The translations under genes and the position numbers were made by a program. DNA of 64,000 bases, taken from positions 62,001 to 126,000 of the forward strand of contig CAZWDO010000001.1 in the NCBI GenBank assembly GCA_964632485.1. The letters run 5' to 3'. Below are positions 10,141 through 44,679 of the stretch, one piece after another. The notes beneath the pieces are model-generated. The model saw nothing but the letters and a program-made list of their open reading frames with translations. It made no database searches and was not told where the DNA came from. Origin of the DNA: an uncultured bacterium (lineage in GTDB: Bacteria > JAGOEH01). Position 1 is the stretch's first letter. Each line of letters opens with the position of its first letter.

Positions 10141-10153
10141 TGGAGGAGCGTTC

Positions 10154-10660
10154 ATGTATAAAGAAGAAATGAAGGATCAACCTTTGCGTCGATTCCAACG
10201 AGTGAATGAGATTATCGAAGAATACGGTAAACAGCGTTCGGCCTTAGTGCCGATTCTGCAGGCCGTTCAAGCTGAATTCCGCTATTTGCCGGAAGAAATG
10301 CTGTCCTTTATCGCCACAGCTCTGAGTCTTTCCCCGGCCACGGTCTATGGCGTGGCGACCTTTTACGCTCAATTTTCCACCGAACCCAAGGGGAAGCACA
10401 TCATCCAGGTATGCGATGGCACGGCATGCCATGTCCGGGGTTCAATGGATGTGATAAAAGTTGTCCAGGAAAAATTGAACCTTACCCATGAAAAACGAAC
10501 GACTGACGATCTGGCTTTTACGCTGGAAACCGTTGCCTGCATCGGCGCCTGCGCATTAGCGCCCGCCATGATGATCAACGGTAAAATCTACGGTCAATTA
10601 ACCGTTGAATCAGTTAAAGAAATTATCGATGACCTGTTGCAAGAGGAAAGGAGCAATTAA
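10154..10660 (+). CDS. hydC: bifurcating [FeFe]-hydrogenase [2Fe-2S] subunit (NuoE-like)
   Basis: GVATFYAQF, VCDGTACHVRG, VACIGACALAP; ATG at 10154 after GGAGG. Confidence 0.9.
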   Translation: MYKEEMKDQPLRRFQRVNEIIEEYGKQRSALVPILQAVQAEFRYLPEEMLSFIATALSLSPATVYGVATFYAQFSTEPKGKHIIQVCDGTACHVRGSMDVIKVVQEKLNLTHEKRTTDDLAFTLETVACIGACALAPAMMINGKIYGQLTVESVKEIIDDLLQEERSN

Positions 10661-10661
10661 G

Positions 10662-12539: not shown

Positions 12540-12555
12540 GCGGAGGACACGGAAC

Positions 12556-18446: not shown

Positions 18447-21400
18447 ATGAAAAAGATACTCCTGGTATTTTTTTGGGCGGTAATATTAACGACATCCTAT
18501 CCCGCTTGGGAAATACGTTTAACCGAAACCAGACATCATCGGCGAAGCGCTATGAATATAAATAGCGAGGGCTTCGCAATTGTCGATTCTATCAATTGGG
18601 TAACGACGTCCCAAGTGATATTTCAAAGCGGAAATCACTATTTTACGGGCAAAGTAAACGATACCCTTGCTTTTTTACCTGATTCTGTTTATGGTATCTA
18701 TATGGAACGCGATTTTATGGATTGGCAAAAGCCGATCCCGCGCGTATGGTCGATCCGCGAGCGTCGGGAATTACTACAGGAAGCCTTATGGCGGGAAACT
18801 ATCTATTCCGGCGTCATGAACCTTGAATCAAAACAAAATCAAAAAGAACAATCCCTCTTCAATATTGAAATTCCCATGAATCTGCCGGCCAATATTTTCG
18901 GCAGCGATAAAGTTTCCCTGCAATTGCGTGGTAATCGGCAAATCAGTTTTGAAGGACGCTCAGAAAACCGGACAGGAGTTGTAACCAGCGACTATTACAA
19001 CCAGAATCAGAATTTTTCGATCAATATGGACCAGCGTTACGATTTCTCCATTACAGGAAAAATCGGAACCAAGATCAATGTGGATATTCATCAAAACTCA
19101 GAGATATCTTCCAGTTTGCAAAACAACATTAAAATCAATTTCCGGGGAGATGAAAACGATTTGATCCAGGAGATTGACGGAGGCAATACCAGTTTATCAT
19201 TGCCCAGCACACAGTTCGTTGGATTTTCAGCCGGTTCCCAAGGGCTTTTCGGGATACGGACCAAGATGCAGTTGGGCGATTTACAGCTCATTACCATTGC
19301 CGCCCAGGAGAAAAGCGATAACGAAAAGCAAAGCTTTGACGTGGGGGGCCCTTCAGGCGCCGCGCAAGCGAATACCGTCAATGTGGAAGATTATATCTCG
19401 CGAACTTATTTTTTTATTGATACGCTCTATTTTTTAAATTTTCCCTACCCTCCCACTGAAAATGATCAGGTCGATCCCAACAGCCTCACTCTCTATGTGG
19501 ATGATTATAATAATATGAATAACCAAACGGCCGTACGTTGCTCTGCCTACTATGACTATAGCAACGGCAAGTCCGATGATCGGGAAAAGCATGAAGGCTA
19601 TTTTACGATCATCGATAAATCAGATTATCAATTTGACCCCAACACCGGGGTAATTTCACTGAAAAATGGCCTTGACCGCAGCCATGTGCTGGGGGTCACC
19701 TATGCTACCAAAGGCGGTAGAAAAATTGGCGACTATGATCGCGAATTTATTATTGACTCCAGCTATGCCTACAAACTCAAGCTGATCGCGCCGACACAAT
19801 CAAAAATGGTTTATGATTCCGTACTATTTACCACCTGGGACTACGAACTACGCAACACATATCGCATTGGCCAGGGACGGTTGGAGAACATTCGCATCAA
19901 AGACTCCAAAAAAAATGTGAATGATCTTCCCGATAAGCAGGATGGAGTGGAACCCTTTGTTTATATTACCGGTATTGCGGCCAGCGCGTCTGACAAAACA
20001 AAATACACCCAGGACGAGGGTTACTGGCTGATCAATTTGACAGTGGGGCTCCTGCGATTTCCAGACATCTACCCGTTTGCGCCCGAACTCAACCGCAAGG
20101 TGATCGGAATGCGCGCAAAAATCAATACCGTATTCAACCTGGAACGAGGCGACCTCATCCTCGATACGGCGTACCAATATCCGGACCTCTATACCAATTT
20201 TCCGATTACCCAGGACATCCGCGAGACTATCATATTAAAAATCGAATATGAGGGAACCGCAACGCGGCAACGAGTCGTCAATTTGGGAAAAACCAATATT
20301 GCCAGCGCAACCATCACCTTGGGCAACGAACGTCTCGAAGAAGGAAAAGATTATCAACTCATCGGAGAAATCGGCCAGATTACGTTTATCAATGATAAAG
20401 TTTTAAACCGCGTTAATGAGAAATTGACAATTGAGTATGAATTTGAACCGTTTTTCAAGACCGGTCAGACCACCTTATTCGGAACGCGGGCCGAATATGG
20501 TATCGGTGAGAATTTAAAATTCGGCGGCACGGTCGTCTATCGCAGCGAACGCGTGATTGATAAAAAACCGCGTCTGGGCTCCGAACCCGCTCGAAATGCT
20601 GTTTTTGATCTGGATGTAGCCTACCGCTATCAACCGGAATTTTTAACAAAAGCCGTTAATTTGCTCCCCTTCTTCTATTCCGATGCGCCATCTTCATTTA
20701 CAGTTCAGGCAGAAATCGGCCACAGCATGCCGGATCATAACGTCAGCAAATACAAAGCCGCTTATATCGACGATTTCGAAAGCAGCCGACAGGCCGACGG
20801 ATTGGGGACTTTTCGCTACAATTGGCAAAAATCCTCCTACCCTCTGGAGACAACAGGCATCAAACGCGGCAAGTTGATTTGGTTCACTTACCCCACACCG
20901 ACATCTTCACGATCAGTATGGCCCAATAAAGACGTCCGGCAACAGGACGATCCAATCTATCCACTTGAGCTCATTTTGATCCCCGATTCCACCGATATCC
21001 TGCCATCCCAGACCTGGGGAGGCATTATGCGCCCTATTTGGAATCCCGACCACTCCCGCAGCAAATATATTGAAGTATGGCTTAAAGGCGACGAGGGGGT
21101 TGACCTGTATATCGATCTGGGGATTATCTCAGAAGATGTGGACAATGACGGCGGTTTTTTACGTACCGAAGACAAAGACCTCAATGGCGTCCTCACGACT
21201 GAAGCCGAAGATACCGGCTTGTGGAGCGATTCCACCGACCTCTGGTTCGATCCCTATGATAATTGGAGTCAATGGGAATCAGACCGCAATTATAACAATA
21301 CCGATCAACTCAAGTATATTAATGGAACTAAAAACAATAAAAACGATCAAAACTCCGGACAATCACCCGATACAGAGGATATGAACCGCAACAGTGTTTT

Positions 21401-24395
21401 AGATACTGAAAACAAATATTTCCAATATCATTTCCGGATTACACGACCCGATCCTCTCAATCCTGGCTATTATATTCCCGGCACACAAAGCGATTCTTCG
21501 TCCAACCCCTGGCGGCTCTACCGCATCCCCATTGAGGATTATACACGTAAAGTCGGCAATGCCTCGCTGGCAAAAATCGAAGCAGTCCGGCTCTGGGTCA
21601 GCGGCGCCGATCAAATGAAACATGTGCGTATCGCTAAAATTGAAATTGTCGAAAACCGCTGGATCGATAATAAAATTCAAAAATCGAACCTCAAAGTTTT
21701 ACCTGATTCCGCTTACCTGCCGATTGTCGATACTACCCATGAAAAATTCAGGGTTTCGGTTGTCAGTGTTTATGAGAATGCGGATTATGTTATCCCTCCC
21801 GGTATCGAACAGATTCGCGACAATCAGTATGACTATTTGCAGAATGAACAATCATTGGCATTGATTCTGGAAAATCTGGAATACGGCCATGAGACATCGG
21901 TTCGCCAGATCGCCACTCAGCCCTATAATTTTACAATGTACCAAAATCTCGAGATTTTTATCCACGGCCCCCTGTTTTCACCGGACAGTATGTTCTTTTT
22001 TATCCGACTGGGCTCGGATGAAAACAATTATTATCAGTACCACAAACTGATCGCCAACGATTGGGAAAAAGTCATCATTCCATTGCAGGAACTAATGTTT
22101 TTTAAGAAGGATTCACTCCTTTTCCTGGAACAATTGATCGAACGCAGCAAAGCCGACAGTTCATTTATCCTTTCCCCAACCGACAGCATGCGCTATGCCC
22201 ACCCCGAATTCTACTTAGACCGTTTCTACATAAAAGGGAAACCGACCCTCAACAATGTGCGACGAATCGATATCGGTGTTGTGAACGCTAACCCCAGCAA
22301 ACAAGCGATCGGACGCGGGGAGGAAGCGCAAGTCTGGTTCAATGAAATGCGCCTGACCAATCCCTATAACCAAAGCGGTACCGCCAAGCGGATAACGGTG
22401 CAGACCAGTTTATCGAACCTGGGTTCTGTAAGTTACAACCTGAGCGAACAGGACGCTTTTTTCCATGATTTGAGGAATGATTTTGGCAGCAACAGGTTTA
22501 CAGTTCAAAATTCTTATTCTGCTCAACTGGATTTCGGACGATTTTTCCCCCAGAAAGCGCAAATCGCGATTCCTGTAAATTTTACACAATCCAACAGTTC
22601 TGACATCCCGCGGATTATCCCCGGTTCCGATATAATCCTCAGCGATAACAAAAACGAAATAGAAAATGATCCGGACATGGAAATATATAAGGGAACGACC
22701 TCGAACTCAACCTTCAGCGTCAGTTACAACAAAGGAGCATCCTCCACTAACCCACTGATCGGCTTACTCTTTGAACGCATCAAACTTAGCTATTCCAAAG
22801 GAGAAAGCGACCGTGTCGATTATACAACGGTCATCAATCGCAGTTCCAATAGTACCGCGAGGTTTTCATTAGATTTGAAACCCAAGAAAACCCCCACTTG
22901 GGCTATATTCAAATGGACCAAACCGATACCCATTGTTAACAGCATGATGCAGAATGCCCAGTTCACCATACTACCCAATCAATTTGATCTATCCTTGGAC
23001 TATTCGGAAACAGACAGCGAGGTGCAACGCCGCTTTGAACAGGAAGCCACTTCGCGCATTTCCCGTTTTTTAGATGGCCGGTTCAATTTTGGACTTTCGT
23101 TATTTAACTCACTGCCATTCCGGTATTCTTTGACCCTCAAACGGGATATGAAGTTTCAACCGTTATCATGGCCGGGAATTCAGCAGGGGAAACTCGGATA
23201 TGAACTCAACCGGGCTCACCAGTATTCACTCAATATGCAGCCCAAAATTTTTTCCTGGTTAAGTCCCAGCGCTAATTACAATTATAACTATACCCAAAAC
23301 CGGATTGAAAAGAATGTAACCACTCAAACAACAACCGATCAAACTAACGAAGCCATCAATCTGAACCTCAGCCGCAACTATCGTTTCAGTTTAAACTACA
23401 ATCTGTTATTGATGATGGATACGGGCGCTCGCAAACTGAAAATGGAAGCCGCTCCAGTATGGAAATTTTTCCGGTCCCTGATCTTCAACCGTCTTGGAGC
23501 GATCACCTATTCCGTTGACCGCACATTAAGTTACACCTTTGCCCAGTCGTATGTAGAACCTGGCTTGAAATACCAACTCGGTTTTGGCCAGGATATACGC
23601 CCTGACCTTTTTCTCTACACCGATTCGGCAGCCATTGCTCAATATACAACCCGCGACGCCCAAAGTCAGGCCGATGGGTGGAGTTTGAGTACATCCCTAA
23701 ATCTGACCAGTTTCATGCGGGGAAATATCAGCTATAAAAATTCGGTTGCTTCCAGCATATCCGGGTCCAGAAACAATGGCGAACGCACGTCCAACACACT
23801 GGGTTGGGGCGGAAATCTATCCAATTTCGCCCAAAAAATACCCATTCTTAAAACCTATGTTCCCAACCTGGCCATTAATCATGCCGGTTCTTATACCGAA
23901 CAAATTCAAGAAAATCAAAATAGCAATACCCTCGCCTTCAGCCCCTTAGCCAGCTTTTCAACCAATATTAAAAAGATTGCTTTGTCCTACACTTATAATA
24001 ATTCACTGACTACCACCGACAATAAAAACGGCAGTATAACAAAAAATGAAAATAACGGACATTCCTTAACCCTGAATTATTCATTTTCAGCAGAAAAAGG
24101 AATTGGTTTGAATTTCCTCTTTTTTAAAAATAAAACTCTAAAATTTAGTAACAACATGAATTTAAGTGTGACAATTAGCCAAAATCATGTAAAAAACTAC
24201 ACAGAGGGACAATCCGCGCTGGCTACCGCCAACTCGGATAAAACGGATGTATCTATCAAACCCCAAATCAGTTATAATTTCAGTTCCCGTATCAATGGCG
24301 GATTGACCGGAGAATATACGCGCAGTCAGGACAATCAACGAAAACAGGGCATGATAATTAAAGCCCTAAAGTTATGGGCTGAATTGCGCTTTTAA
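18447..24395 (+). CDS. sprA: type IX secretion system outer-membrane translocon SprA/Sov homolog
   Basis: ITGKIG, GNTSLSLP...QGLFGI, AYIDDFE, RGKLIWF, LYIDLGIISED, PDTEDMN, WRLYRIPI, VWFNEMRL; long amphipathic beta-strand C-terminus ending in F. Confidence 0.9.
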   Translation: MKKILLVFFWAVILTTSYPAWEIRLTETRHHRRSAMNINSEGFAIVDSINWVTTSQVIFQSGNHYFTGKVNDTLAFLPDSVYGIYMERDFMDWQKPIPRVWSIRERRELLQEALWRETIYSGVMNLESKQNQKEQSLFNIEIPMNLPANIFGSDKVSLQLRGNRQISFEGRSENRTGVVTSDYYNQNQNFSINMDQRYDFSITGKIGTKINVDIHQNSEISSSLQNNIKINFRGDENDLIQEIDGGNTSLSLPSTQFVGFSAGSQGLFGIRTKMQLGDLQLITIAAQEKSDNEKQSFDVGGPSGAAQANTVNVEDYISRTYFFIDTLYFLNFPYPPTENDQVDPNSLTLYVDDYNNMNNQTAVRCSAYYDYSNGKSDDREKHEGYFTIIDKSDYQFDPNTGVISLKNGLDRSHVLGVTYATKGGRKIGDYDREFIIDSSYAYKLKLIAPTQSKMVYDSVLFTTWDYELRNTYRIGQGRLENIRIKDSKKNVNDLPDKQDGVEPFVYITGIAASASDKTKYTQDEGYWLINLTVGLLRFPDIYPFAPELNRKVIGMRAKINTVFNLERGDLILDTAYQYPDLYTNFPITQDIRETIILKIEYEGTATRQRVVNLGKTNIASATITLGNERLEEGKDYQLIGEIGQITFINDKVLNRVNEKLTIEYEFEPFFKTGQTTLFGTRAEYGIGENLKFGGTVVYRSERVIDKKPRLGSEPARNAVFDLDVAYRYQPEFLTKAVNLLPFFYSDAPSSFTVQAEIGHSMPDHNVSKYKAAYIDDFESSRQADGLGTFRYNWQKSSYPLETTGIKRGKLIWFTYPTPTSSRSVWPNKDVRQQDDPIYPLELILIPDSTDILPSQTWGGIMRPIWNPDHSRSKYIEVWLKGDEGVDLYIDLGIISEDVDNDGGFLRTEDKDLNGVLTTEAEDTGLWSDSTDLWFDPYDNWSQWESDRNYNNTDQLKYINGTKNNKNDQNSGQSPDTEDMNRNSVLDTENKYFQYHFRITRPDPLNPGYYIPGTQSDSSSNPWRLYRIPIEDYTRKVGNASLAKIEAVRLWVSGADQMKHVRIAKIEIVENRWIDNKIQKSNLKVLPDSAYLPIVDTTHEKFRVSVVSVYENADYVIPPGIEQIRDNQYDYLQNEQSLALILENLEYGHETSVRQIATQPYNFTMYQNLEIFIHGPLFSPDSMFFFIRLGSDENNYYQYHKLIANDWEKVIIPLQELMFFKKDSLLFLEQLIERSKADSSFILSPTDSMRYAHPEFYLDRFYIKGKPTLNNVRRIDIGVVNANPSKQAIGRGEEAQVWFNEMRLTNPYNQSGTAKRITVQTSLSNLGSVSYNLSEQDAFFHDLRNDFGSNRFTVQNSYSAQLDFGRFFPQKAQIAIPVNFTQSNSSDIPRIIPGSDIILSDNKNEIENDPDMEIYKGTTSNSTFSVSYNKGASSTNPLIGLLFERIKLSYSKGESDRVDYTTVINRSSNSTARFSLDLKPKKTPTWAIFKWTKPIPIVNSMMQNAQFTILPNQFDLSLDYSETDSEVQRRFEQEATSRISRFLDGRFNFGLSLFNSLPFRYSLTLKRDMKFQPLSWPGIQQGKLGYELNRAHQYSLNMQPKIFSWLSPSANYNYNYTQNRIEKNVTTQTTTDQTNEAINLNLSRNYRFSLNYNLLLMMDTGARKLKMEAAPVWKFFRSLIFNRLGAITYSVDRTLSYTFAQSYVEPGLKYQLGFGQDIRPDLFLYTDSAAIAQYTTRDAQSQADGWSLSTSLNLTSFMRGNISYKNSVASSISGSRNNGERTSNTLGWGGNLSNFAQKIPILKTYVPNLAINHAGSYTEQIQENQNSNTLAFSPLASFSTNIKKIALSYTYNNSLTTTDNKNGSITKNENNGHSLTLNYSFSAEKGIGLNFLFFKNKTLKFSNNMNLSVTISQNHVKNYTEGQSALATANSDKTDVSIKPQISYNFSSRINGGLTGEYTRSQDNQRKQGMIIKALKLWAELRF

Positions 24396-24517: not shown

Positions 24518-25567
24518 ATGGAGTCCATAATGTCATCACCGCTTTATATTCCCGAAAATTATCAACCATTATTATCGCTTAAACAAACTGAAATCGCCAT
24601 CAAGCGACTCAAGGATTTCTTTCAGAACAACCTATCGGCGGAATTACGCCTGACCCGTGTTACCGCTCCCCTTTTCGTTAAAAAAGGCACCGGAATCAAC
24701 GATGATCTGAATGGAATTGAACGCCCGGTATCGTTTCCCATCAAAGGCATGAATGAGACCCAGGCAGAAATCGTTCAGTCCTTAGCCAAGTGGAAACGGC
24801 TGATGCTGGCTGAATACCAGGTTGAAACCGGGTACGGAATCTATACGGACATGAACGCCATTCGCCCCGATGAAATTCTCGATAATATTCATTCACTCTA
24901 TGTAGACCAGTGGGACTGGGAAATGGTTATAACCCGGGAACAACGAAATCTTGATCTCTTAAAATCGATCGTACGCAAAATCTACACCGTGTTAAAACAG
25001 ACTGAATTTTTTATTTTTGAAAACTATGATATCAAACCCGAATTACCCGAATCCATCTATTTTATCCATAGTGAGGAACTTCAGGCTCGATATCCGCAAC
25101 TCACTCCCCGGGAAAGAGAGCAGGAGATTGTCAGGCAATATGGAGCGGTCTTTGTCATTGGTATTGGCGGAGTATTGGCAGACAACCAGGTTCATGACGG
25201 CCGCGCTCCCGATTACGATGATTGGACTACCCCAACGATAAACGGGTACCACGGATTAAACGGCGATATTATCATCTGGAATCCGGTGTTACAATCAGCG
25301 TATGAAATTTCTTCCATGGGGATTCGAGTGGATGAAAACGCCATGAATACCCAATTAAAAATATGCGGCGCGCAAGACCGGCAAAATCTTTATTTTCACA
25401 ATCGTCTTCTTAAGGGTGAATTGCCTTACTCCATCGGTGGTGGAATCGGCCAGTCGCGATTATGTATGTATTACCTGCGAAAAGCCCATATTGGTGAAAT
25501 TCAGTCCAGCCTCTGGCCCGAGGATATGATCGAAACTTGTCACGCCAACCGGATTTTCTTGTTATAG
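24518..25567 (+). CDS. asnA: aspartate-ammonia ligase
   Basis: NDDLNGIERPV, VQSLAKWKR, HSLYVDQWDWE, HDGRAPDYDDW, SIGGGIGQSR. The true start may be ATG 24530. Confidence 0.96.
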   Translation: MESIMSSPLYIPENYQPLLSLKQTEIAIKRLKDFFQNNLSAELRLTRVTAPLFVKKGTGINDDLNGIERPVSFPIKGMNETQAEIVQSLAKWKRLMLAEYQVETGYGIYTDMNAIRPDEILDNIHSLYVDQWDWEMVITREQRNLDLLKSIVRKIYTVLKQTEFFIFENYDIKPELPESIYFIHSEELQARYPQLTPREREQEIVRQYGAVFVIGIGGVLADNQVHDGRAPDYDDWTTPTINGYHGLNGDIIIWNPVLQSAYEISSMGIRVDENAMNTQLKICGAQDRQNLYFHNRLLKGELPYSIGGGIGQSRLCMYYLRKAHIGEIQSSLWPEDMIETCHANRIFLL

Positions 25568-25580
25568 AAACTCTCTTATT

Positions 25581-25686
25581 CGACAAAATTGTCGTTCAAT
25601 AGTCGTCATTTTTGTCGAATTTTATATAGTCAAATTTTTAAGTAGTTGCTGATTAATAGCTTGAAATTAATGGCTTAATAAATGCA
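25581..25686 (+). promoter_or_regulatory. putative sigma54 promoter with tandem upstream activator sites
   Basis: TGGC-TTAATAAA-TGCA (GG-N10-GC) at 25671-25686; palindrome CGACAAAATTGTCG (25581-25594) and near-copy CGTCATTTTTGTCG (25604-25617). Confidence 0.6.
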
Positions 25687-25724
25687 AACTATTAATTGTA
25701 ACCACTAACTCAAAGGAGTCACTT

Positions 25725-26117
25725 ATGAAAATGAGACAACAATGGCTGATGTTACTTTCCATTATCATCGGAATCACTGCTTTCCAATCCGCCTGGGCGT
25801 GTGATATTTCAATCAAGTTCGACGATGCCAAGAAAAATGAATTTAACAGAGGGGATACGGTACTAATAACCGTAAAGGTTAATCTCCCTCATCGCAATTG
25901 TCCCAACAGTATTGAGCAGACAGAGTTTGCCTATGATGGCATCAAGGTGCTCGGTTCGACCGGTTGGAAAGATATGAAACAACAGACCTGGCAAAAACGT
26001 TTTAAAGTAATAGTACTGGATACCTTGGTTGAAAAGGTATATTTTAAAGCTTACCGGTTATGCAGCGCGGGTGGGGATGAAGAAATACTACCCATTCCGG
26101 TTAAAGCGAAGGATTAA
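25725..26117 (+). CDS. small secreted beta-rich protein with Cys/His motif
   Basis: AAGGAG SD; signal peptide ending AWA-C; HRNC and RLC motifs. Confidence 0.75.
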   Translation: MKMRQQWLMLLSIIIGITAFQSAWACDISIKFDDAKKNEFNRGDTVLITVKVNLPHRNCPNSIEQTEFAYDGIKVLGSTGWKDMKQQTWQKRFKVIVLDTLVEKVYFKAYRLCSAGGDEEILPIPVKAKD

Positions 26118-26120
26118 ACA

Positions 26121-27398
26121 ATGAATTCAAAGCGCGCTATCTTATACAAGCTAATTGGCGGGTTGATCCTGCTAACAGGATTATTTCCAGAATATTCGTT
26201 AGCCAAAGAGGATTGCCGCTCTCAGATTGGCGCAAGTTTGAATCCCCTGGGAAAAGAAACCCCCTTTTACTGGGGGTTTGAGATAATCGGCGGATATGGA
26301 TTGCGCACAAATGCCCAACTGGCTAATATCAATTTATATCAGGCGCTATCTTTCAATCATGACAACTACAAATTATATGTTGAGACTGGCTACAAATGGC
26401 GCGATAAAAACTTTGAGAATCATGAACAGCGTTCTATCCGACATGCGCATTTTGGGGCGCGGGCGCTTTACGCTTCATTTTATTTTGAACATTTAGAAAT
26501 GACTACAGGTCTATTTGAAGCGTCCTTGAAAAATTCTTTTATTTTGGACGAACGGGTTGTGGGAATCGACATCAAGAGCGATCTGGCGCGTTGGCAGTGG
26601 CAACTCTCAGCCGGCAGCATTCTCAAGGATTTTGCCCGCCATGGAGCGTTTTGTAGTGTATCACACCTGTTAAAGACCACAATTGATGATCCCAGTCCCC
26701 TTTTAGGCAACAAACTGGGGGATATGACTTTTGCCGCTTTTTCCTGGCAATTAATTCCCCGGCAGGCGCTTCCGTCTGAAAAGGAGGATGAATTTGAAGA
26801 CTTTAATGAGCCAGTGGAAGAAAGCGCGCCCGTATTAGTGCCTTCAAAACTAAAAATTGAAGGCCTCGCATTGCATGCTTATTCTGAATTCGGAAGATGG
26901 ATTAAATCCCCATCATATTTCAATGGGATTACTTTATCTATTGGAACACCTCTAATTGAAAAGCTGACAGCCGAATCCTGGATTCAAATTCAATCTGACC
27001 AATGGAACTCCATCCATAAAATCGCCGCCGAAAAATCCCTGGGATGGCAGCAATCAGCCATCAGTTGCGCGTATTATACATACTGGGGGGATCATTATGG
27101 CCATTTTACTCCTCCCTCTTTCAGCAATCTGTTTCTGGGAGAAATGGCGCAATTGGATGTGATTCATCTGCCCCTCTTAACGTTCAATCTGTTTATTCCC
27201 GTGCAACCCTGGAAAACCAATATTCAATTCGAGCATATCATTCAATTGGAACATGCCCATACCCGTGAGACTGATTTGATGATCAGCCATCGATTCTTTG
27301 GAAAAATGATGACTTATTTCTGGGTCGGCCGTCTTTCGTCTCAAACGATTGACGAAACATATTGGCTGACCCGCTTAGAATTACACTGGACACTGTAG
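26121..27398 (+). CDS. hypothetical exported protein, probable outer-membrane beta-barrel
   Basis: Signal peptide (SLA-K), many aromatic-rich alternating strands, C-terminus YWLTRLELHWTL. Confidence 0.55.
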   Translation: MNSKRAILYKLIGGLILLTGLFPEYSLAKEDCRSQIGASLNPLGKETPFYWGFEIIGGYGLRTNAQLANINLYQALSFNHDNYKLYVETGYKWRDKNFENHEQRSIRHAHFGARALYASFYFEHLEMTTGLFEASLKNSFILDERVVGIDIKSDLARWQWQLSAGSILKDFARHGAFCSVSHLLKTTIDDPSPLLGNKLGDMTFAAFSWQLIPRQALPSEKEDEFEDFNEPVEESAPVLVPSKLKIEGLALHAYSEFGRWIKSPSYFNGITLSIGTPLIEKLTAESWIQIQSDQWNSIHKIAAEKSLGWQQSAISCAYYTYWGDHYGHFTPPSFSNLFLGEMAQLDVIHLPLLTFNLFIPVQPWKTNIQFEHIIQLEHAHTRETDLMISHRFFGKMMTYFWVGRLSSQTIDETYWLTRLELHWTL

Positions 27399-27413
27399 GG
27401 AAAAAGGCTAAAT

Positions 27414-28415
27414 ATGAATAGACGTAACTTCATTCAAATGGCCGGAAAATCTTTAGGATCCATCACACTGGTTGGCGGTTGGGTGGGATTCAGTTGTTCC
27501 GGTTCGCTATATGAATCGTACCGTATTGATGCCGGGAAATGTATCGGCTGCGGAATTTGCTCTGATGAATGTCGGTATCAGGCAATTAGCTTACCTATTA
27601 AAAGCGAGTATCGGATTGATGTGGAAAACTGTAGGGAATGCGGCGTATGTGTCGATCATTGTCCGGAAGGCGCTATCCATGTCGCTGCCATTGAATATGC
27701 TATAAACAATGATCAGTGCACTGATTGCGGCGATTGCCAAAAAGTCTGCGATCCGGACGCAATCATAATTTCATGGGCAGACTACGGTATTTTAGACGAT
27801 AAATGTGTTGGCTGCGGGGATTGTATTGGAATCTGTGAAACCAACGCCATAAATTATATCCGGGAATACTATACCGTTAATACACAACTCTGCGGCCAGG
27901 GTTGCGGCCACGGATGCGTCAGCGTCTGCCCGGAACAAGCTATCAAATCCTCCGGCAGAAATACCGTCATTGATCTGGCGAAATGCACACGATGCGGGTT
28001 ATGTCTTAGCGCCTGCCCACGCGATGCCATTCTGCCGGCGCTGGTTGCTTTGCAAACTGATTTATGCACACAATGCGGCAAGTGTTTCCCAATTTGCAGC
28101 TATGATGCCATTGATAAAAAATATCAAAATTCCGATCTAAGAACTTCCATTGACAAGAGTAAATGTAATCGGTGCGGAAACTGCCTTCCCATCTGCCCAT
28201 CCCAGGCAATCATCAAAATCGATCCGGTTGTTTATTTTTCTCCCTATATCGAACCAGCCATTTGTACCCATTGCGGCAAGTGCTTTAAAGGGGAGGTTTG
28301 CATCTATGAAGGAGCGCTGATCAGAACTCTGTACCAGGCGCAAATTCTCCATAAGGAATGTGTTAAATGCGGTGATTGCATTGATCTTTGCCCTGAAAAA
28401 GCGATCGATTCGTAA
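27414..28415 (+). CDS. Tat-signal (lipo)protein polyferredoxin with ten [4Fe-4S] motifs
   Basis: MNRRNFI twin-Arg, GFS-C lipobox-like; eight CxxCxxCxxxC motifs plus two spacing variants (CGQGCGHGCVSVC, CTHCGKCFKGEVC). Confidence 0.88.
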   Translation: MNRRNFIQMAGKSLGSITLVGGWVGFSCSGSLYESYRIDAGKCIGCGICSDECRYQAISLPIKSEYRIDVENCRECGVCVDHCPEGAIHVAAIEYAINNDQCTDCGDCQKVCDPDAIIISWADYGILDDKCVGCGDCIGICETNAINYIREYYTVNTQLCGQGCGHGCVSVCPEQAIKSSGRNTVIDLAKCTRCGLCLSACPRDAILPALVALQTDLCTQCGKCFPICSYDAIDKKYQNSDLRTSIDKSKCNRCGNCLPICPSQAIIKIDPVVYFSPYIEPAICTHCGKCFKGEVCIYEGALIRTLYQAQILHKECVKCGDCIDLCPEKAIDS

Positions 28416-28465: not shown

Positions 28466-28501
28466 AAAAAAAAAACGCCCGTCCGGGTGAAACGGGCGTT
28501 T
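28466..28501 (-). terminator. intrinsic terminator (minus strand)
   Basis: AAACGCCCGT/ACGGGCGTTT stem followed by a long T run on the minus strand. Confidence 0.75.
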
Positions 28502-28569: not shown

Positions 28570-31500
28570 TTATTTTAATAAAATCATTTTTTTAATCTGG
28601 AATTGCCCTTTTTCATTGTTTAATCGATAATAATAGATTCCATTCGGCCAATTTCCCGTTTGAAGTTGAATTATTATTTTTTGAGGTACTTGAGGATAAT
28701 ATTTTTCCATCCACATAATCAACCCTAATGCATTATAAACAGTCAACATGAGTTGCTTTGAAACCCCACTCCAAAAGCTGATCTGCGTCGTTTGATTAAA
28801 AGGATTTGGAAAATTTGAATATAATTTAGTTGTCGGAGTATTAGTTTCTGAGCCATCTTCGATAGAAGAACTCGGAAATTCAATTCGAAATATAGCTGAT
28901 AACGCATACACAGAATCATCATCGGTCCTGGAAATTTTAAATTGCGCGACCGACGTTGTATCAATATTAATGGGCCAGATATATTGACCCGAATTATCAA
29001 GATTTGCTGCAATCAATTCAAAATGGTTGCCCCTGTCATCTGAAAAATATAGATTTACTTTCAAGCACTGACCCGAGGTGTGCCATCGAATCGTATCAGA
29101 TTGTCCCACAAACCATCGATCGCCATCCAATGGATTAGAGAATATAAAACGGACCGGCTCATCTTCTGTCGTCAGGCTCCAAACCGGGCCCTGGCTGCTC
29201 AGTTCTCNNNNNNNNNNNNNNNNNNNNNNNNNNNNNNNNNNNNNNNNNNNNNNNNNNNNNNNNNNNNNNNNNNNNNNNNNNNNNNNNNNNNNNNNNNNNN
29301 NNNNNNNTCCATTCGAGCGTCAGCTCCAGCGCCTGGTCAACGGCCCCGTCCACCGGTTGGGGCGTGTGCGGTATCTCCGGCGCCCGATTGACTACCGGCT
29401 CATCTTCTGTCGTCAGGCTCCAAACCGGGCCCTGGCTGCTCAGTTCTCCGTCCGTCGCGGTTACCCGCCAGTAATAGGTCGTTCCGTAAGAGAGTCCGCT
29501 GCGTTCCAGTCCGGTCGCTGCTTGGTTCGAACTCACGACCGTCACGGGCGGATTGACGGTTCCCCAATACACTGTGTAGCGCAGCGTATCGCCATCTACA
29601 TCCGCGCAACTCCATTCGAGCGTCAGCTCCAGCGCCTGGTCAACGGCCCCGTCCACCGGTTGGGGTGTGTGCGGAATCTCCGGCGCCCGATTGACTACCG
29701 GCTCATCTTCCAAAGAAATAAAATTTGATATTTGTGATTCCTGCCAATCCCGGCTACAGAGAGTTGCGTAATAATATTCTTGAGAAGAAACAGTCGATGT
29801 TTTCATCAATTTCGAGTTTATCGGAATCTCAGTTGAAAAACTCGAATGGCAAAAATGAATACTGACAATCTCATCCTGATCAATAGGATCAAAATTTTTA
29901 TCCGGGGAGCGGTAAAGGACGCACCAATGATCAGAAGACAAACCACTTGGGGGCGTTATCTGGACAACAATTTGCTGGTCATTACTTGAAATTTTAGCTA
30001 TAGACGGGGGTTGAGGAGGATTGGAGCTACGATTGCCTACTGGTCTAACCTTGGTTAAGCGTGTAAAAAAAAGAGATCGGGCAGTAGCCCAGTATTGATG
30101 ATCGCGCCAGGAAGCATAACTATAAAAAGAAAACCCATCAATCCAATCTCCCGTATCCCTGGAACGTGAAACAACAGCAGGATGATTATCCCAGATTCCA
30201 TTATCATTGAGGATATAGGAACCAGGGCCCACTGTGAATAAAATTCCCGCATTAATTCCATCCAACAAGTATTGTTGCCAACATGATGGACAGGAACCGC
30301 TTAACATATTATAGAATTCATCGCCAGTTTTCCAATGATAATGCATCGGCACGAGTTGCTCGATATGCCCTTCATTAAACCATTTAGCGCCATCCTGGAA
30401 GACTGTATTATATCCATCCCACCCGGCATCCCAGTTGTATTTTCCCAATACGGTGGTTGATAAGCGAACATGGGGTTTTTCCGACTGAATTGCATCATGT
30501 AAATCTGCAACAAATTGAGTTACTGAAGACCGCCACCATTCCTCCCAGCTTAAAAATCCGGCAGGAATACCGGAATTATACGGATGATCCGTATCCCACA
30601 AATAGCGATTGGTTGTTGAAAGTTGTTGAAGTTCAAATGCCAATTCTGAGGGAATCACTCCATCCGGTAGTTCGAGATCATACTTTGACATCTCTTTGAG
30701 CCGCTTTTTCAAATAGCTGCTGGTATATTCATTCCAGCGTATATAATCGAGATGGATTCCATCAATATCATAATTTCGAACAATCGACAACGCCAGATTC
30801 AATGTGTAATCTCTAACCGCAGCAAGTCCAGGGGAAAGACATCGGTTGCTGGTCATCGCAGTTCCCTGACGATCGCGGCAAACCCATTCCGGATGTTCAT
30901 AAGCGGGAGCTCCAGACCGTAATTCCCCTACAGCAAACGTATTAAACCAGGCATGAAGTTCCATACCACGGGCATGAGCTTGTTCAATTGCATAAGCCAA
31001 TGGATCGAAACCCGGATTATTATATCCAACGGAAGCTCCCCAAGGTTCAGGCGAAGAGGGATCGTCATAATATCGCGTACCAGATCGACGGACGTGCCAG
31101 AAAATCGCGTTGAAACCACCGGCTTGTAAACTATCTAAAATTTGCCGGCAGAGTTGTTTATTCTGTTCTACTGTTTTTGAAGAACTGATCAAATCCCAAA
31201 TAGCAATCCATACTGCCCTAAATTCTTCATTTTGACCATCTTGACGTGAAATGGAGGGCCGTTGATGGATTTGAAGGGATAAAACTGCGTAATCCGATTC
31301 ACTTCCTCCACTATCCCGCGCTTTCACTCTCACAGAATATGTCCCAGCACCATTCCAGGTTTTAAATTGGGTGCAAAGGGTTCCTGAAGCATAAGGACCC
31401 AGCCAGTCGGATTGTGTTCCGTCTCCCCATTCAAAACGGAAAAATATCGAATCGCCGTTGGGATCGGTTGACTGGGCGGTGAAACGATAACTCACTCCCG

Positions 31501-32935
31501 GATATCCATTACTATAGCCAACCAATTGCGGGGTAAGCGGCGGTAATGGATTTCCGCCTGAAGTGGTTTGAAAACTCCAAACCGGTCCCATTGTTTGGAC
31601 TAAACCATCACTGGCGCTGATTTTCCAATAATAGAGAGTATTAGTTTCCAACCCGGTTAAAGAATACGTAGTTTGAACTGATCCGTTTTGCAGGATTGGA
31701 GGAGTGGCGGCAGTGCCGAAATAAATAGCATACGTCAAAGGATTTCCATCCGGATCGCTGGAGCTCCAACTGAGAGTGGGATTCAAGGAAATTTGATTAC
31801 TTCCATTAGTCGGGAAAATGCAAGTTGGGACTGTTGGCGGGCGATTGTCTTGAGTAGAAGATTCGATTGTCTGCCAGGCAGCGATTCCGTTATTGGTTAT
31901 CAACTGATAAAATGTGATCGTATTATCACTATTGATATGCCATGCAATATCCCCCGTTACATTAGAGTTAGCTTCATACGTCGTATTCAATGATACGGAT
32001 TCATATAATTCGGGTTGAGTTTTTGAATTTGTAATATTATAAAGCTGAAATTTTAATCCATCCGCTTCTGATGATATCGCCGTAACAGCTAAAAACTCAA
32101 GAGTGGTGGAAAAAGCGTAACTCAATGCATTCCAAGCAGAAGAGATGGAACCAGCGTTCACAATACTGGTCACCGTGCCGCTGGATTCAACGAGTTTAAT
32201 CGTACTATTCGCTCCATTGATCCACAGAGGAGCGCTTAATCCGGCTTGAGTGGGGCAAATCGCGCCCCTGGCATTATTCGCTTCGACTGTAATAGCATCA
32301 TAAGCGCTAAAAACTTGTCCATCAAGGGTCGTAAACCGATACAGTTGCGTATTGCCACTTGACCCACTTACATAAATTATCGTTTGTGTTCCGCTGCCGG
32401 CAATTCCCATGGCATCACCCACTCGACCCGAAACATCACCGAGAAAGGCGACTGTTGGTTGAGTATTTTCATCACTCCAACGATAGAGCTTAAAACCGGT
32501 ACCGGAAGTCGTAAGATTGCACGCATAAACAACTCCGGCTTCATCAACCCGGATCATATTAAAAGCATACGTTCCACCACTAACACCCGTCATATTTAAC
32601 GAAGCAATCTGGGACCCGTCATCGGGATTAATCACGAATATTCCGGGTTGAGTGCGGGATGCGACCAGAAGATGCCCGCTTGCTACATTATAAGCCAGGC
32701 TACGAGTGGCATGATCATTGGCCAACCAATCATAGTCGCCCCGATGCTTTTCCCATAATAAAACCAGATTTGATTCTCGGGCAGGAGTCGTTTGTGTTGA
32801 ATTCTTTAATGAATCACTCCCTGCAGAGTTCGTATTGTTTACATGTTGCCCAGCGCAGGCCGTATCGGATTGAGGGTAAATAGTGGATAGCCAAGTCACC
32901 ACGATTAATGCTATAGTAAAAATTTTCAGCGTCAT
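28570..32935 (-). CDS. large T9SS-cargo protein: N-terminal propeller-like domain, FN3/PKD, GHL10 (DUF187) glycoside hydrolase, tandem FN3-like repeats, CTD; frame broken only by an N gap
   Basis: EFRAVWIA, HARGMELHAWFN, YDIDGIHLDYIR (GHL10); FEWGDG (PKD). After the gap, ELSSQGPVWSLTTEDEPVRFIFSNPLDGDRW is in frame with ORF 28570..29130, which ends NFPNPFN...GIYYYRL...KKMILLK. Confidence 0.85.
29155..29710 (-). repeat. 303-bp (101-aa) near-identical tandem repeat within the CDS, at least two copies, interrupted by 100 N
   Basis: GCTCATCTTC recurs at 29701, 29398 and 29157; visible overlapping parts of the copies differ at only about two synonymous positions. Confidence 0.9.
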
Positions 32936-35201: not shown

Positions 35202-37115
35202 ATGGATTTTTTTTTAAAAAATAGACTAAAAGTCAATTTTTTTTGGAATATTATTTCTTTTTCATTATATATCAATTTAGTTTACTCTGGCAATTATACT
35301 GCAAACACTTTTTCCATTGCGTGGTTGAGTGATACACATGTAGGTTCCAATACGGGCGAGGAGGATTTAAGAAAAGCGATCGCCACAATCCAGCAGATGC
35401 CCTTAATCAAACAGGTGATTGTCAGTGGCGATATCAGCCAAATGGACATCAAAGACAATCTTTTGTGCGCAAAAAAAATTTTAGACGAACTCTCCATACC
35501 GTATGCCATCATTCCAGGCAATCATGACTTGAAGTGGTCAGCTTCGGGCGGGCAGAAATTCATTGATCTCTGGGGAGATGATAAATTTTCATTGAATTTT
35601 GCGGGAATCCAATGGATTGGATTAGCGCAGGGCCCTGTGATGAGAATGGGCCCGGGATGTTTTAATCCCCGGGATATCGATTGGTTGAGAACCACTTTAG
35701 AGCCATTGAGAAAATCGCAAATTCCCATATTTTTTGTGACTCATTACCCCATGGATAGTAGCGTCTGTAATTACCGTCCAGTTCTTGATCTTCTGAAGGA
35801 ATGCAATGTCCAGTTTATTTTACATGGCCATGAACATCGATTAGAAATAACAAATTATGATGGAATCACCGCAATTATGGCGCCCGCTAATATCAGAGAC
35901 GATAGCCCTAAGGGCCAGTTTATGGTTATAAAAATTATACCAGATTCACTTCTACTTTTTGAGCATCCTCATGGCAATACCGTGGGCGTTTGCCGAGCGC
36001 GCCTGGCGCGCCGATCTCCTACCGGAAACACTCCCGATTTAGCGCCACACGACCAGGATATCCGATTCGATCCGGAGCTTACTAATATAATATGGCGCCA
36101 CGATTACCACGACTTGCTGCTTTCCCCTCCCGCTGTGGATAAAACCACTTTATATTGCGCGTTATATAGCGGACGAGTTGAAGCCCGTTCCCTCGAAAAG
36201 GGCCAACTACTTTGGCATTATTCCCTTGACGAAACAATTACAGCCTCTCCAACACTTTACGATTCATTATTGATCATCGGCACGGATCGCCATCACCTTT
36301 TCATATTCAATAATCAAACAGGCAGACTTCTAAGAAAAATTAATCTCCCCGGGCCTCTGCTGGCTACTCCCTTGATAGAGTATTCAATTGCATATTGCCC
36401 CATCAGCGAACAAGGAGTTTTAGCCTGGGATATAAAAAACAATCGACAGCTATGGTTTGCCGATGATATTCGGGGATATTGCGAAACACAACCCATAATT
36501 TATCGTGACTTGATATTATGCGGCGCCTGGGATGAGAACTTTTATGCATTTGCTAAAAGTACAGGGGAAAAAGTCTGGACCTGGCATGATCATCGCCCGG
36601 GGCTCCTCTATTCCCCCGGAGCTTGTCAGCCGGTTATCACGCAAGATATTCTATTCCTGGTTACTCCGGATCGATTCCTCTCGGCCATTCAACCGAAAAC
36701 CGGGAAAACGTTATGGCGATCCAACCAACTGAAAGTCAGGGAGTCCTTAGGGTATTGCCCAATGACATCCACCATATATGTAAAATGTATGACCGATACG
36801 CTGGCAGCCATAGAACCTTCAGCGGATTCATTAATCATCCATTGGATTTCGGACCAAAAATTTGGTTACGATATCAATCCGGCATCCCCCGTAGCAAACG
36901 GTCATCTTGTTTTCATCCCAACCCAAAAAGGTGAACTATTGATTCTTGATCAGCAAAATGGAAAACGCGTAACCCAAATTAAATTAGGGCAATGTCAACT
37001 CAACCTTCCAGTATTTTGTTCTGATAACCGTGTTATTCTATCAGCAATGGATGGGAAACTGGCAGTAATACGTTATAAAGCAAATCTTAATGAAAGGATT
37101 CTCAATGAAAACTAA
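35202..37115 (+). CDS. calcineurin-like metallophosphoesterase fused to PQQ-like beta-propeller
   Basis: SDTH, SGDI, PGNHD, THYP, HGHEH; repeated G..LW propeller blades. Confidence 0.85.
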   Translation: MDFFLKNRLKVNFFWNIISFSLYINLVYSGNYTANTFSIAWLSDTHVGSNTGEEDLRKAIATIQQMPLIKQVIVSGDISQMDIKDNLLCAKKILDELSIPYAIIPGNHDLKWSASGGQKFIDLWGDDKFSLNFAGIQWIGLAQGPVMRMGPGCFNPRDIDWLRTTLEPLRKSQIPIFFVTHYPMDSSVCNYRPVLDLLKECNVQFILHGHEHRLEITNYDGITAIMAPANIRDDSPKGQFMVIKIIPDSLLLFEHPHGNTVGVCRARLARRSPTGNTPDLAPHDQDIRFDPELTNIIWRHDYHDLLLSPPAVDKTTLYCALYSGRVEARSLEKGQLLWHYSLDETITASPTLYDSLLIIGTDRHHLFIFNNQTGRLLRKINLPGPLLATPLIEYSIAYCPISEQGVLAWDIKNNRQLWFADDIRGYCETQPIIYRDLILCGAWDENFYAFAKSTGEKVWTWHDHRPGLLYSPGACQPVITQDILFLVTPDRFLSAIQPKTGKTLWRSNQLKVRESLGYCPMTSTIYVKCMTDTLAAIEPSADSLIIHWISDQKFGYDINPASPVANGHLVFIPTQKGELLILDQQNGKRVTQIKLGQCQLNLPVFCSDNRVILSAMDGKLAVIRYKANLNERILNEN

Positions 37116-38391
37116 AAGTTTATGCCTGATCTGGCTCGTTCTTTTTACCACAAGCGCTTATTCTTATCAATGGGGAAAATTGAGTTTTTCTCTTCAGGAG
37201 CGGTATCGTATAGTAATGTGGGATAACACGGTTAGCCTTGACGAAGGCGCAGCCGACGTGTCAGCGTTTACCCGCCACCGCACTAATCTCTGTTTCGGAT
37301 ATCAACCCATGCAAAACATAGAAATCGCACTACAATTCACCAATGAATTTCGCAAATATATTTCTCCTAAAAACCGCGCATTTACCATTCATGAATGGGT
37401 GATTGATCAGCTCTATGTGAAAATGAACAAACCCGGAAATTTACCGTTCAATGTAACCTTAGGAAGGCAAAATATAATCCTGGGTGAAGGGTTCGTTGTC
37501 ATTGAGGGAAATCCCCTCGACGGCTCGCGCACCATCTATTTCAACGCCGCCCGATTCGATATTATTCCCAACGATCAACATCAATTGACCCTGGCCATTG
37601 TTTATAACCAGGCGATAGACAGTTTATTACCAATTATTATGGACCAGGACCAGGCGCTCTCCGATCAGGATGAAACCGGAGCCATTGCTTATTACCAAGG
37701 CAAATTTAATGGGCAGACAGCCGAGGCCTATTATATTATGAAACAGAACAAGGAGATGAACAGCCGACCTGAACAAACCCTGCATACCATTGGCGCCCGC
37801 GGATTATTTAATTTACTGGATAAAAAACTGAGCGCTCAAGGAGAATTTGCCCTGCAATTCGGCAAACAAGCCGAAACAGACCGTAGCGGGTGGGGTGGAA
37901 ATTTCTATGTCAAATATACTCTTCCCAGCAAAGAGCTGACTTTTTTAGATTACTTTAAACTCGGCTCCGTAATGTTGAGCGGGGATGATGCAGATACCGG
38001 TGATAAAATTGAAGGATGGGATCCGCTGTTTGCCCGTTTTCCAAAATGGAGCGAATCCTATATTTATACTCAGATCAAAGAGTGTGGCGTGGCTAACTGG
38101 ACAAATTTTCAATCTTTCTACGCCCACCTCTCCCTCAGATTCAGTAACGATATTACATGGTTATGGGGATATCAACTACTCGGCGCGTTTGAAAAAATGC
38201 CGGTTATTGCCGGATTCAACGGCAGTGGGACGAAACGCGGCACATTGATTCAAACTAATCTGGAATACAAAATGAATCAATATCTGAGTATGCATGCTAT
38301 CTGGGAACATTTCAACCCCGACGATTATTATTTTGCTGAAGCCAATGCAGCAACCTGGATTCGCTTTCAACTATTGCTGAATCTTAAGTAG
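37105..38391 (+). CDS. alginate-export-family outer-membrane beta-barrel
   Basis: Signal peptide, [17 protein letters not shown]...[15 protein letters not shown]...WDPLF. Confidence 0.75.
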
Positions 38392-43649: not shown

Positions 43650-44675
43650 TTATAAATCCGGAGAATTTATTTGGTGTAATTCACCGTTAATATTTTCAAT
43701 TAGCAAATATCGGAATTGCGGATAATAGGTCTTCATAAACCGAACCCCATCATTGATACCCAAAGCGAAAATTGCCGTACTCAAGCCATCGCACACCATA
43801 GCGGAATGCCCCGTAACAGTAACTCCAACCAATGTGAATTGTACAGGATAACCTGTAAGAGGATCAATAATATGAGAATATCGATGCCCATCATTCCCCA
43901 AAAAATAGCGTTCATAATCGCCACTGGTCGCGACAGCTTCATCGTCATTAATTTCAAGTGTACACCATATCGAATCATTAGCGCGGGGATTTCTAACCCC
44001 TATCTTCCATCGACCGCCATCCACGGGTTTTTTGCCAAACGTTTTGATATTGCCACCCACGTTGATTAATCCCGCAATCATCCCGGGGGTATGCTGAATA
44101 TAATCCGCCAGTGAATCCGCGATAAATCCTTTGGCAACGGCGCCCAAATCGATATTAATATCAGAGCTGGAACGAATCAACACTGAATCAGCCACTAAGT
44201 TTAAGTTTTCAAATCCCACATGTTTCAACGTTTCTTCGATTTGCAGTGGAGTGGGAATTTTTGCTTTACGAAAATCCCATAATTTGACCAGTGGATGAAC
44301 AGTAATATCAAAAGCGCCGCTGCTTTCCCCGCTGAGTTTCAATGAGAAAGCGATTACTTTTCGCAAAGGGTCTGGCAAAATGACGGAATTCCCCCATTCC
44401 CCCTGATTGAAACGCGCAGGCCAGCTTAACGTATCATAAATAGAAAAAGAACGATTGGCGGCAGCAAGCTCATTTTGAATCTTTTCCACTAACCCAGTTT
44501 CGTCGATAGAGAATTTAGGATCACAATAATAGATCACTTCAATAAATGTATCAAAATATTCAAGAAATAACTCATGTCGAGGATAGCGGTGAGTATATTG
44601 CCGATATAAAGCGACAGCGATTAAAACGGCAAGAAAAAGAGACACAAACCAGCGAGATTTTACATATTTCAGCAT
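43650..44675 (-). CDS. apbE: FAD:protein FMN transferase
   Basis: GAFDITV, IDLGAVAKG, VATSGDYERY, HIIDPLTG, CDGLSTA. Confidence 0.93.
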   Translation of the reverse strand: MLKYVKSRWFVSLFLAVLIAVALYRQYTHRYPRHELFLEYFDTFIEVIYYCDPKFSIDETGLVEKIQNELAAANRSFSIYDTLSWPARFNQGEWGNSVILPDPLRKVIAFSLKLSGESSGAFDITVHPLVKLWDFRKAKIPTPLQIEETLKHVGFENLNLVADSVLIRSSSDINIDLGAVAKGFIADSLADYIQHTPGMIAGLINVGGNIKTFGKKPVDGGRWKIGVRNPRANDSIWCTLEINDDEAVATSGDYERYFLGNDGHRYSHIIDPLTGYPVQFTLVGVTVTGHSAMVCDGLSTAIFALGINDGVRFMKTYYPQFRYLLIENINGELHQINSPDL

Positions 44676-44679
44676 CCGC

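Follow-up and report, generated by a model that had tools for sequence, protein, structure and literature searches.

Described iron-sulfur (Fe-S) proteins of the bacterial envelope offer several points of comparison for the locus reported here. In the account of the Nap system given in PMC5449189, NapH enters the membrane through the general secretory (Sec) pathway, crosses it four times and has its clusters on the cytoplasmic side; NapG, with four clusters, is exported by the twin-arginine translocation (Tat) pathway; and a NapH-NapG fusion polyferredoxin is shown to be Tat-dependent. Since NapG and NapH-NapG fusions are described there, exported polyferredoxins are not new in themselves. According to PMC7558416, CcoG (FixG) is a cupric reductase of the Fer4_5 Fe-S type whose periplasmic immunoglobulin (Ig)-like domain is of unknown function. 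The subject of the present analysis is a set of three adjacent genes, here called A, B and C, found in a 64,000-nucleotide (nt) stretch of DNA from an uncultured bacterium (assembly GCA_964632485.1, contig CAZWDO010000001.1, positions 62,001 to 126,000 of the forward strand). This whole stretch is referred to as the window, and coordinates are counted from its first letter unless a locus is named.

25725..26117, plus strand: gene A, an open reading frame (ORF) of 130 amino acids (aa)
26121..27398, plus strand: gene B, an ORF of 425 aa
27414..28415, plus strand: gene C, an ORF of 333 aa

The gaps between A and B and between B and C measure 3 and 15 nt, respectively, and each of the three ORFs starts with a signal-like hydrophobic N-terminus; the ORF listing thus agrees with the original prediction, made from the letters of the window, of three closely spaced genes for exported-looking proteins. 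Homologs of A, B and C each retain the same gene order in other genomes, and the three are therefore real genes rather than chance ORFs. Judged by sequence, the trio is a variant of a conserved envelope cassette, A-H-B(-C), that lacks the membrane protein gene H. The cassette is undescribed: no account of it was found in the full-text literature, in a search that left most subscription journals and supplementary files outside its reach. It is present in at least about 20 independent lineages and unites a NapH-type membrane protein, a private channel, an unannotated protein with an N-terminal Cys and, in about half of the cases, a Tat polyferredoxin, two of these four protein families being without any annotation.

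Compared with the quinol-dehydrogenase-type modules NapGH and MauMN, the H proteins of the relatives together with C resemble NapH and NapG, C being a poly-[4Fe-4S] protein with a twin-arginine (RR) signal. However, C has ten candidate clusters instead of four, a lipobox, and a profile that lies nearer to MvhB and FwdF than to NrfC-type proteins. H, for its part, scores under the curated NapH cut-off and has an extra acidic N-terminal segment and a CPC motif. Neither NapA/NapB nor any further terminal enzyme is encoded in the window neighbourhood or beside the scanned related cassettes, a dedicated barrel (B) and protein A are added, and the window copy is without H. By domain content only, H and A look like a split CcoG, with a Fer4_5 membrane protein, an Ig-like domain and Cys-based metal sites, although A is a separate protein with an N-terminal-Cys motif of its own and there is no cbb3 oxidase context.

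A likeness of a different kind exists to MtrCAB and PioAB, where the cluster corresponds to a periplasmic ten-centre carrier, an outer-membrane barrel and a small extra protein, with an inner-membrane donor in the relatives. In contrast to those systems, C has Fe-S motifs only, and the genome contains no ORF, read from stop to stop, with at least three CXXCH motifs, so that a heme route is unavailable in it; moreover, B is modelled with 18 strands in an AlgE/OprD-like manner as opposed to 26, and the carrier C is optional. With the archaeal polyferredoxins MvhB and FwdF, its best matches among solved structures, C appears to share tandem 2x[4Fe-4S] repeats, but these proteins are cytoplasmic subunits of the Mvh/Hdr and Fwd complexes, whereas C combines a Tat signal with a lipobox and is not flanked by genes for Mvh, Hdr or Fwd. 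The fold predicted for B is like that of AlgE and OprD (Occ) over more than 300 aligned residues of what is a predicted model only; B nevertheless has no detectable sequence relation to them and is set apart by two invariant Cys, [DE]EF repeats and a redox gene context. The new elements, in terms of predicted proteins, are the ten-cluster lipoprotein ferredoxin, an obligatory private AlgE/OprD-like barrel (even occurring as a fusion with H), the Ig-fold protein with its N-terminal Cys, and the [DE]EF repeats.

The A-H-B(-C) cassette in related genomes

A total of 22 loci outside the window were compared, of which 7 came from the genome collection, 3 were distinct loci from metagenomes (L016, a duplicate of L007, was dropped) and 12 came from a sample of 301 genomes of one Bacteroidales-level order. 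B was found in 27 of these 301 genomes; the 12 loci represent 12 of 25 further matching genomes and were picked from the match list, mostly for their longer contigs. Two pairs of loci are nearly identical, L013 with L005 and L038 with L037, which leaves about 20 independent loci. Gene order was established from hidden Markov model (HMM) scans and ORF listings.

The order A-H-B(-C) recurred in this set in members of Bacteroidales, KSB1 and Acidobacteriota. H stood beside B in 20 of the 22 loci and A beside B in 19 of the 21 that were testable (L008 being cut), with B alone in just two, the near-identical L037 and L038. C was less constant: a long C with 7-11 canonical motifs followed B in 10 loci, only a two-cluster C was present in a further 2, and no C was seen in 10. 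Accordingly, the co-occurrence in other genomes that the original prediction called for stood for A with B, and held for C with B in only 12 of 22 loci, both lengths of C being counted. Its remark that no membrane anchor accounts for the ferredoxin stands for this genome and fails for the relatives, 20 of 22 of which carry a NapH-type H between A and B. The 150 best B representatives include four H-B fusions, the full-length P0066, P0072 and P0075 and the fragment P0105. The fusions retain the signal peptide of B, and the three full-length ones fall in one clade of the B tree; neither a B-C nor an A-B fusion occurred among the same 150 representatives. Given these tallies and fusions, A-H-B forms the conserved core of the cassette and C is an accessory.

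H is a membrane protein of 312-499 aa that matches Pfam Fer4_5 (PF12801) above cut-off. Its matches to the NapH/MauN model TIGR02163 range from 1e-19 to 2e-23 (71-83 bits, under the curated cut-off of 213); it also matches NosR, and no CcoG model appears among its listed NCBIfam matches. Two C-terminal CX2CX2CX3C motifs, CX3C(H/P) motifs, a G-[GA]-C-P-C motif within a hydrophobic segment and an acidic N-terminal segment complete the picture, and together these features place H, as far as motifs and profiles can tell, among the inner-membrane Fe-S proteins of NapH/MauN/NosR type.

In the flanks of the related cassettes, a TetR-type regulator gene lies directly upstream of A in 4 loci, and extracytoplasmic function (ECF) sigma factors and HAE3/MMPL transporters occur in 2 loci each. 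PF03773-type or SO_0444-type permeases resembling Cu/Zn efflux proteins flank the cassette in L002 and L029, an ArsM-like methyltransferase does so in L030 and a peroxiredoxin in L033. The permeases and the ArsM-like gene may be taken as weak hints of a link to metals.

The short-C variant was seen at L030:7750-8064 (minus strand), L029:7800-8066 (minus strand) and L002:6831-7160, where a two-cluster ferredoxin of about 90-110 aa follows B and is itself followed by a paralog of A. The paralog in L002, the only copy aligned, is without C26, H56 and C113. The signals of the short C proteins differ as well, with RR in L002, HRK in its place in L029 and a Sec-type lipoprotein signal in L030, which is odd for an Fe-S protein.

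Of 23 loci, counting the window, only that of the window has A-B-C and no H, and with A and B just 3 nt apart there is no room for it. The same layout, also without H, was recovered from a related strain in an independent sample. Its contigs bridge both the A-B junction (X2 record 5, covering 25400-26337, and X3 record 16, covering 25950-27311) and the B-C junction (X2 record 10, covering 26970-27624), and the H-less arrangement is therefore not an assembly artefact. At the reporting thresholds used, no indels in the coding regions of A, B and C were reported between the two strains. In A, 11 of the 18 listed differences are synonymous and none falls at an invariant residue (46 further differences are unlisted). 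The collection searched holds only three species genomes for the phylum of the window, and B is missing from the other two.

Divergence from the related strain is not even along the locus. To the left of about 26600 it amounts to about 4-7% (55 differences in 938 nt; 18 in 263 nt), and to the right of about 26770 to about 0.1-0.5% (1 in 228, 3 in 655 and 1 in 1003). This step, at 26584-26770, suggests from the aligned contigs a recombination boundary inside B.

Predicted properties of the three proteins

The N-terminus of C, MNRRNFIQ, contains the twin-arginine motif, and a Cys at position 28 lies in the sequence GFSC at the end of the h-region (the hydrophobic segment). There are 41 Cys in total. 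Eight canonical CX2CX2CX3C motifs, together with CX3CX3CX3C at residue 160 and CX2CX2CX5C at residue 284, give ten candidate [4Fe-4S] cluster sites, eight canonical and two variant. Pfam recognised only 4Fe-4S ferredoxin families in C (Fer4 with an E value of 2.1e-48; Fer4_6 in 10 stretches) and no catalytic domain. All of this agrees with the features originally read from the letters of C, namely an RR signal, a lipobox-like Cys and ten motifs with no catalytic domain. The RR motif, moreover, turned out to be conserved as that reading needs, RR and the lipobox-like Cys being present in 7 of 7 aligned C homologs and in 11 of 11 long C homologs, ten of the eleven independent. The lipobox takes the form [LI]-x-[SG]-C in 6 of the 7 aligned homologs. 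The genome encodes both TatC and signal peptidase II (LspA, PF01252), and C is predicted to be a Tat-exported, lipid-anchored polyferredoxin. By profile, the closest solved relatives are MvhB (9sw6_G, 7.7e-35) and FwdF (5t5i_F, 3.3e-23), the match to an NrfC-type four-cluster subunit reaching only 6.9e-7; the NCBIfam FwdF model scored 84.6 bits on C against a cut-off of 375.

No Pfam family matched B at E<=0.1, and no NCBIfam family matched it. A word-index search of 5.8 billion proteins returned only three homologs, and a profile built from ten sequences retrieved 171 representative clusters at E<=1e-3, 114 of them at E<=1e-30. On the strength of these profile matches, the B family is small but real. 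The AlphaFold2 model of B (predicted local distance difference test score, pLDDT, 71.9; predicted template modelling score, pTM, 0.71) contains 18 long strands. In Foldseek searches with this model OccD3, OprD, OccK, AlgE and chitoporin ranked first, at 7.9e-12 (OccD3) and weaker. VIA-align gave a Z score of 26.1 for AlgE (7acg), with a root-mean-square deviation of 3.7 over 329 residues, and Z scores of 22-25 for OccK and OprD; look-alikes in the Atlas were Alginate_exp and Campylo_MOMP. The top structural matches, of AlgE, OprD and Occ type, are 18-strand monomeric channels. B is accordingly a predicted 18-strand outer-membrane channel, in line with the outer-membrane barrel proposed for this gene from its aromatic, strand-rich sequence.

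A second barrel gene in the window, at 37090-38388 and of the Alginate_exp family, was tried as a sequence relative of B and ruled out by hhalign (probability 0.3%).

Two Cys are invariant in the B family: Cys32 comes just past the signal peptide, at the start of the mature protein, and Cys178 belongs to a long loop. Also conserved are a loop with the sequence FSNLFLGE and an aromatic or hydrophobic C-terminal residue. An acidic loop with [DE]EF repeats, at about residues 216-241, is long and of low confidence in the model, and strand counting makes it a periplasmic turn. Of 26 sequences compared, most contain repeats of this kind, the H-B fusions having the smallest number; the repeats also recur in the extracytoplasmic N-terminal segment of H (L002-L007, P0066, P0072 and P0075).

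The [DE]EF repeats were also considered as a docking site for C; this was rejected, as they are equally frequent in C-less and in B-alone loci.

Protein A matched no Pfam and no NCBIfam family, and its homologs form 173 clusters, every one of which is named 'hypothetical'; cultured carriers of the family are found among Draconibacterium, Labilibacter and Prolixibacteraceae strains and include Draconibacterium sp., Labilibacter sediminis and Prolixibacteraceae bacterium Z1-6. Across 45 aligned sequences A25, C26, H56, C59 and C113 are invariant. In all 45 the signal peptide ends in [AVT]-[K/R/S/Q]-A, followed across the cleavage point by C-E-I-E-F; Ala occupies position -1 in every one of the 45 sequences, and 38 of them have K, R, S, Q, E or N at position -2. 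From this alignment the cleavage site is of the AxA type recognised by signal peptidase I, with Cys26 as residue 1 of a soluble mature protein.

That A might be a lipoprotein is ruled out by its signal peptidase I-type cleavage site and by the lack of a lipobox before the conserved Cys.

The predicted model of A (pLDDT 88.5) is a seven-strand Ig-like sandwich. Structure searches with Foldseek and VIA-align found generic Ig, CnaB and MG matches only, and the fold is therefore uninformative about the function of A; Atlas look-alikes of the model include BatD, DUF11 and, at a template modelling (TM) score of 0.67, DsbD_N. By Ig topology, the invariant Cys and His residues would gather at one pole of the domain, where they could form a Cys3His metal site or a site of redox-active thiols. 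A pre-assembled cluster in A is unlikely because its signal is of the Sec type.

Possible roles of the cassette

The analysis points to a genuine and conserved periplasmic Fe-S system linked to a barrel of the outer membrane. For what it does, we tentatively favour a heme-free NapGH-like module that exports reducing power, in which C would serve as an Fe-S wire tethered in the periplasm, B as a channel for solutes and A as a Cys/His carrier of metal or thiol; as a whole this reading falls a little short of probable. Low-potential electrons would pass from cytoplasm to periplasm on Fe-S clusters in the manner of NapGH, MauMN, NosR and CcoG, and would be spent on some small substrate that the cell handles at its outer membrane. 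In the relatives, H would take the electrons across the inner membrane from its two cytoplasmic [4Fe-4S] motifs, with the CX3C(P/H) motifs and the intramembrane CPC as further parts of its equipment. C would fold in the cytoplasm and receive about ten clusters there before its export by Tat; held by a lipid anchor, it would then extend the chain as a periplasmic wire. B would pass the substrate or the product through the outer membrane as an AlgE/OprD-like channel and would provide no sheath for the wire, and A would act as a soluble periplasmic terminal carrier of Ig fold through its Cys3His metal site or redox-active thiol site. Our guess for the substrate is a metal, a metalloid or a sulfur species. 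Identifying it would bring to light a new reductase or metal-handling system in the periplasm of anaerobic sediment bacteria or, less likely, heme-free extracellular electron transfer.

Several observations weigh against a module of this kind. No conserved catalytic partner was found beside the cassette in any scanned locus, and a crude Tat scan of the genome revealed no periplasmic (Tat-signal) hydrogenase or formate dehydrogenase. No true H homolog was found in the genome, which is 98% complete, and with H absent the reduction of C is left there without an evident donor. The window B groups in the B tree with P0002, its nearest relative at 51% identity, on a long branch apart from the rest, so that the function of the window copy may be unlike that of the majority form. 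Finally, the meeting of the N-terminus of A, the loop after strand 2 (H56 and C59) and the last hairpin (C113) at one pole is inferred from Ig topology and not from coordinates.

Stand-ins for H in this genome are a speculative matter. RnfB and an FMN-bind/NosR-like gene, both unlinked to the trio, are the only candidates. The latter is the single PF12801 (Fer4_5) gene of the genome and lies on another contig, beside a TonB-dependent receptor gene. The genome has Rnf and [FeFe] hydrogenases. Seen the other way round, the window copy amounts to a natural experiment, being the same system minus its membrane donor.

Two side observations concern these genes. The rnfCDGEAB genes lie at G000:C5:53954-59943, where tatC comes directly after rnfB. 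The Fer4_5 protein at G000:C13 (L011:7997-9214) has an RnfG-like flavin mononucleotide (FMN)-binding domain, which an ApbE-type enzyme such as the one encoded in the window within 43650-46488 could flavinylate.

The reading put forward in the original prediction, a heme-free analogue of MtrAB, would make of the cassette a true conduit across the outer membrane. C would dock on or in B, and electrons would proceed by way of the B Cys pair, a bound metal or a surface-exposed A, in parallel to CymA-MtrA-MtrB-MtrC. The known electron routes of the Gram-negative envelope depend on multiheme cytochromes, and a cassette working in this way would be the first envelope-spanning electron conduit entirely without heme, running from a NapH-like H or other donor to C, then to the Cys pair or metal of B, and to A as exit or entry; fermentative bacteria without cytochromes would thereby gain extracellular electron acceptors or donors. 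The components do make a complete parallel in the relatives (H as donor, C as ten-centre periplasmic carrier, B as barrel, A as small fourth protein), the genome encodes no multiheme cytochromes, and the two invariant Cys of B lie at the mature N-terminus and in a long loop. In Escherichia coli, lipoproteins without Asp at position +2 go to the outer membrane, and the predicted lipid-anchored C has no Asp there. Nevertheless, we consider a conduit of this type unlikely. B is modelled with as many strands as AlgE and OprD, as opposed to the 26 of MtrB, and a folded 2x[4Fe-4S] domain is too big for an 18-strand lumen; C could not enter such a channel, and B would be too small to sheathe it, which makes an MtrAB-style sheathing of the wire unlikely as far as the model goes. 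C is dispensable, being missing from 10 of 22 loci in which A-H-B by and large persists, and is never fused to B among the best representatives, as against four fusions of B with H. A, with its signal peptidase I site and no lipobox, bears no mark for the cell surface. Altogether the MtrAB analogy is weakened, and the alternative that the original prediction had named beside it, a periplasmic system for handling electrons or metals, is the better fit to the evidence.

A thiol-disulfide relay, working as an Fe-S-driven alternative to DsbD, would have the clusters of H reduce membrane Cys pairs, from which reducing equivalents would pass to A (in the role of the DsbD N-terminal domain) and from A to either the B Cys pair or oxidised substrates, with C as an optional booster; the chemistry of H would then be likened to that of ferredoxin:thioredoxin reductase and heterodisulfide reductase. 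Such a relay would employ the invariant Cys of A (C26, C59 and C113) and of B (C32 and C178) as well as the CPC and the two CX3C motifs of H. It is consistent with the resemblance of the Atlas model of A to DsbD_N (TM 0.67) and with the peroxiredoxin that adjoins a single cassette, that of L033. The Ig fold, however, is a generic one, and PDB searches returned no specific DsbD match; a metal site would account for the invariant His56 and N-terminal Cys no less well, thiol exchange needs no ten-cluster wire, and no conserved thioredoxin-fold partner is encoded nearby. This reading, too, appears to us improbable, both for the path from H to B and for the chemistry ascribed to H.

Least likely, and to be given little weight, is that the trio is a decaying or re-purposed remnant in this genome, with H lost, C donorless and the genes mere neighbours without shared function: the lone H-less A-B-C layout among 23 loci, the lack of an H homolog elsewhere in the genome and the long branch of the window B would fit such an origin, but the three ORFs are intact and tightly spaced, all invariant residues and motifs are retained, and the junctions are unchanged in the related strain from an independent sample, with no coding indels reported and with the mostly synonymous listed changes in A sparing every invariant site.

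Surroundings of the locus

Upstream of the trio are the genes for AsnA and, at 18447-24395, for a SprA-like translocon protein of the type IX secretion system (T9SS), 1982 aa long. Adjacent to the trio no molybdoenzyme, NrfD-type protein or hydrogenase subunit is encoded, the nearest hydrogenase genes being 11 kb upstream. Downstream, on the minus strand, follow genes for proteins with T9SS sorting tails, and the gap between C and this convergent neighbour contains one further feature.

28473..28501, no strand assigned (listed on the minus strand): G+C-rich hairpin with a 12-bp stem and a T run

The hairpin likely marks the end of both transcription units, as a boundary marker and not as proof, given that terminator-like sites in the region show no excess (4 found versus 3.8 expected from shuffles). 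Promoter-like sites in a scan of the same region were no more numerous than in shuffles.

The genes just past the cassette, at 28570-29130 (minus strand) and 29159-32935 (minus strand), code for secreted proteins; one has a Por_Secre_tail domain, and the other, of 1258 aa, is interrupted by a run of N at 29208-29307. Farther upstream, an [FeFe]-hydrogenase cluster occupies 7254-14568. It encodes a 577-aa Fe_hyd_lg_C protein in which a putative Fe-S domain is followed by a SpoIIE-type phosphatase, a sensory-looking arrangement, and also a NuoF-like subunit of 644 aa and a HydA of 670 aa that includes the small-subunit domain. Within 43650-46488 (minus strand), the ApbE flavin transferase gene adjoins one for a 602-aa protein without a Pfam family. 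The second 18-strand-type barrel of the window (37090-38388, Pfam Alginate_exp 2.6e-9) is encoded after a metallophosphatase/PQQ-like beta-propeller protein and before a Cache-domain chemoreceptor.

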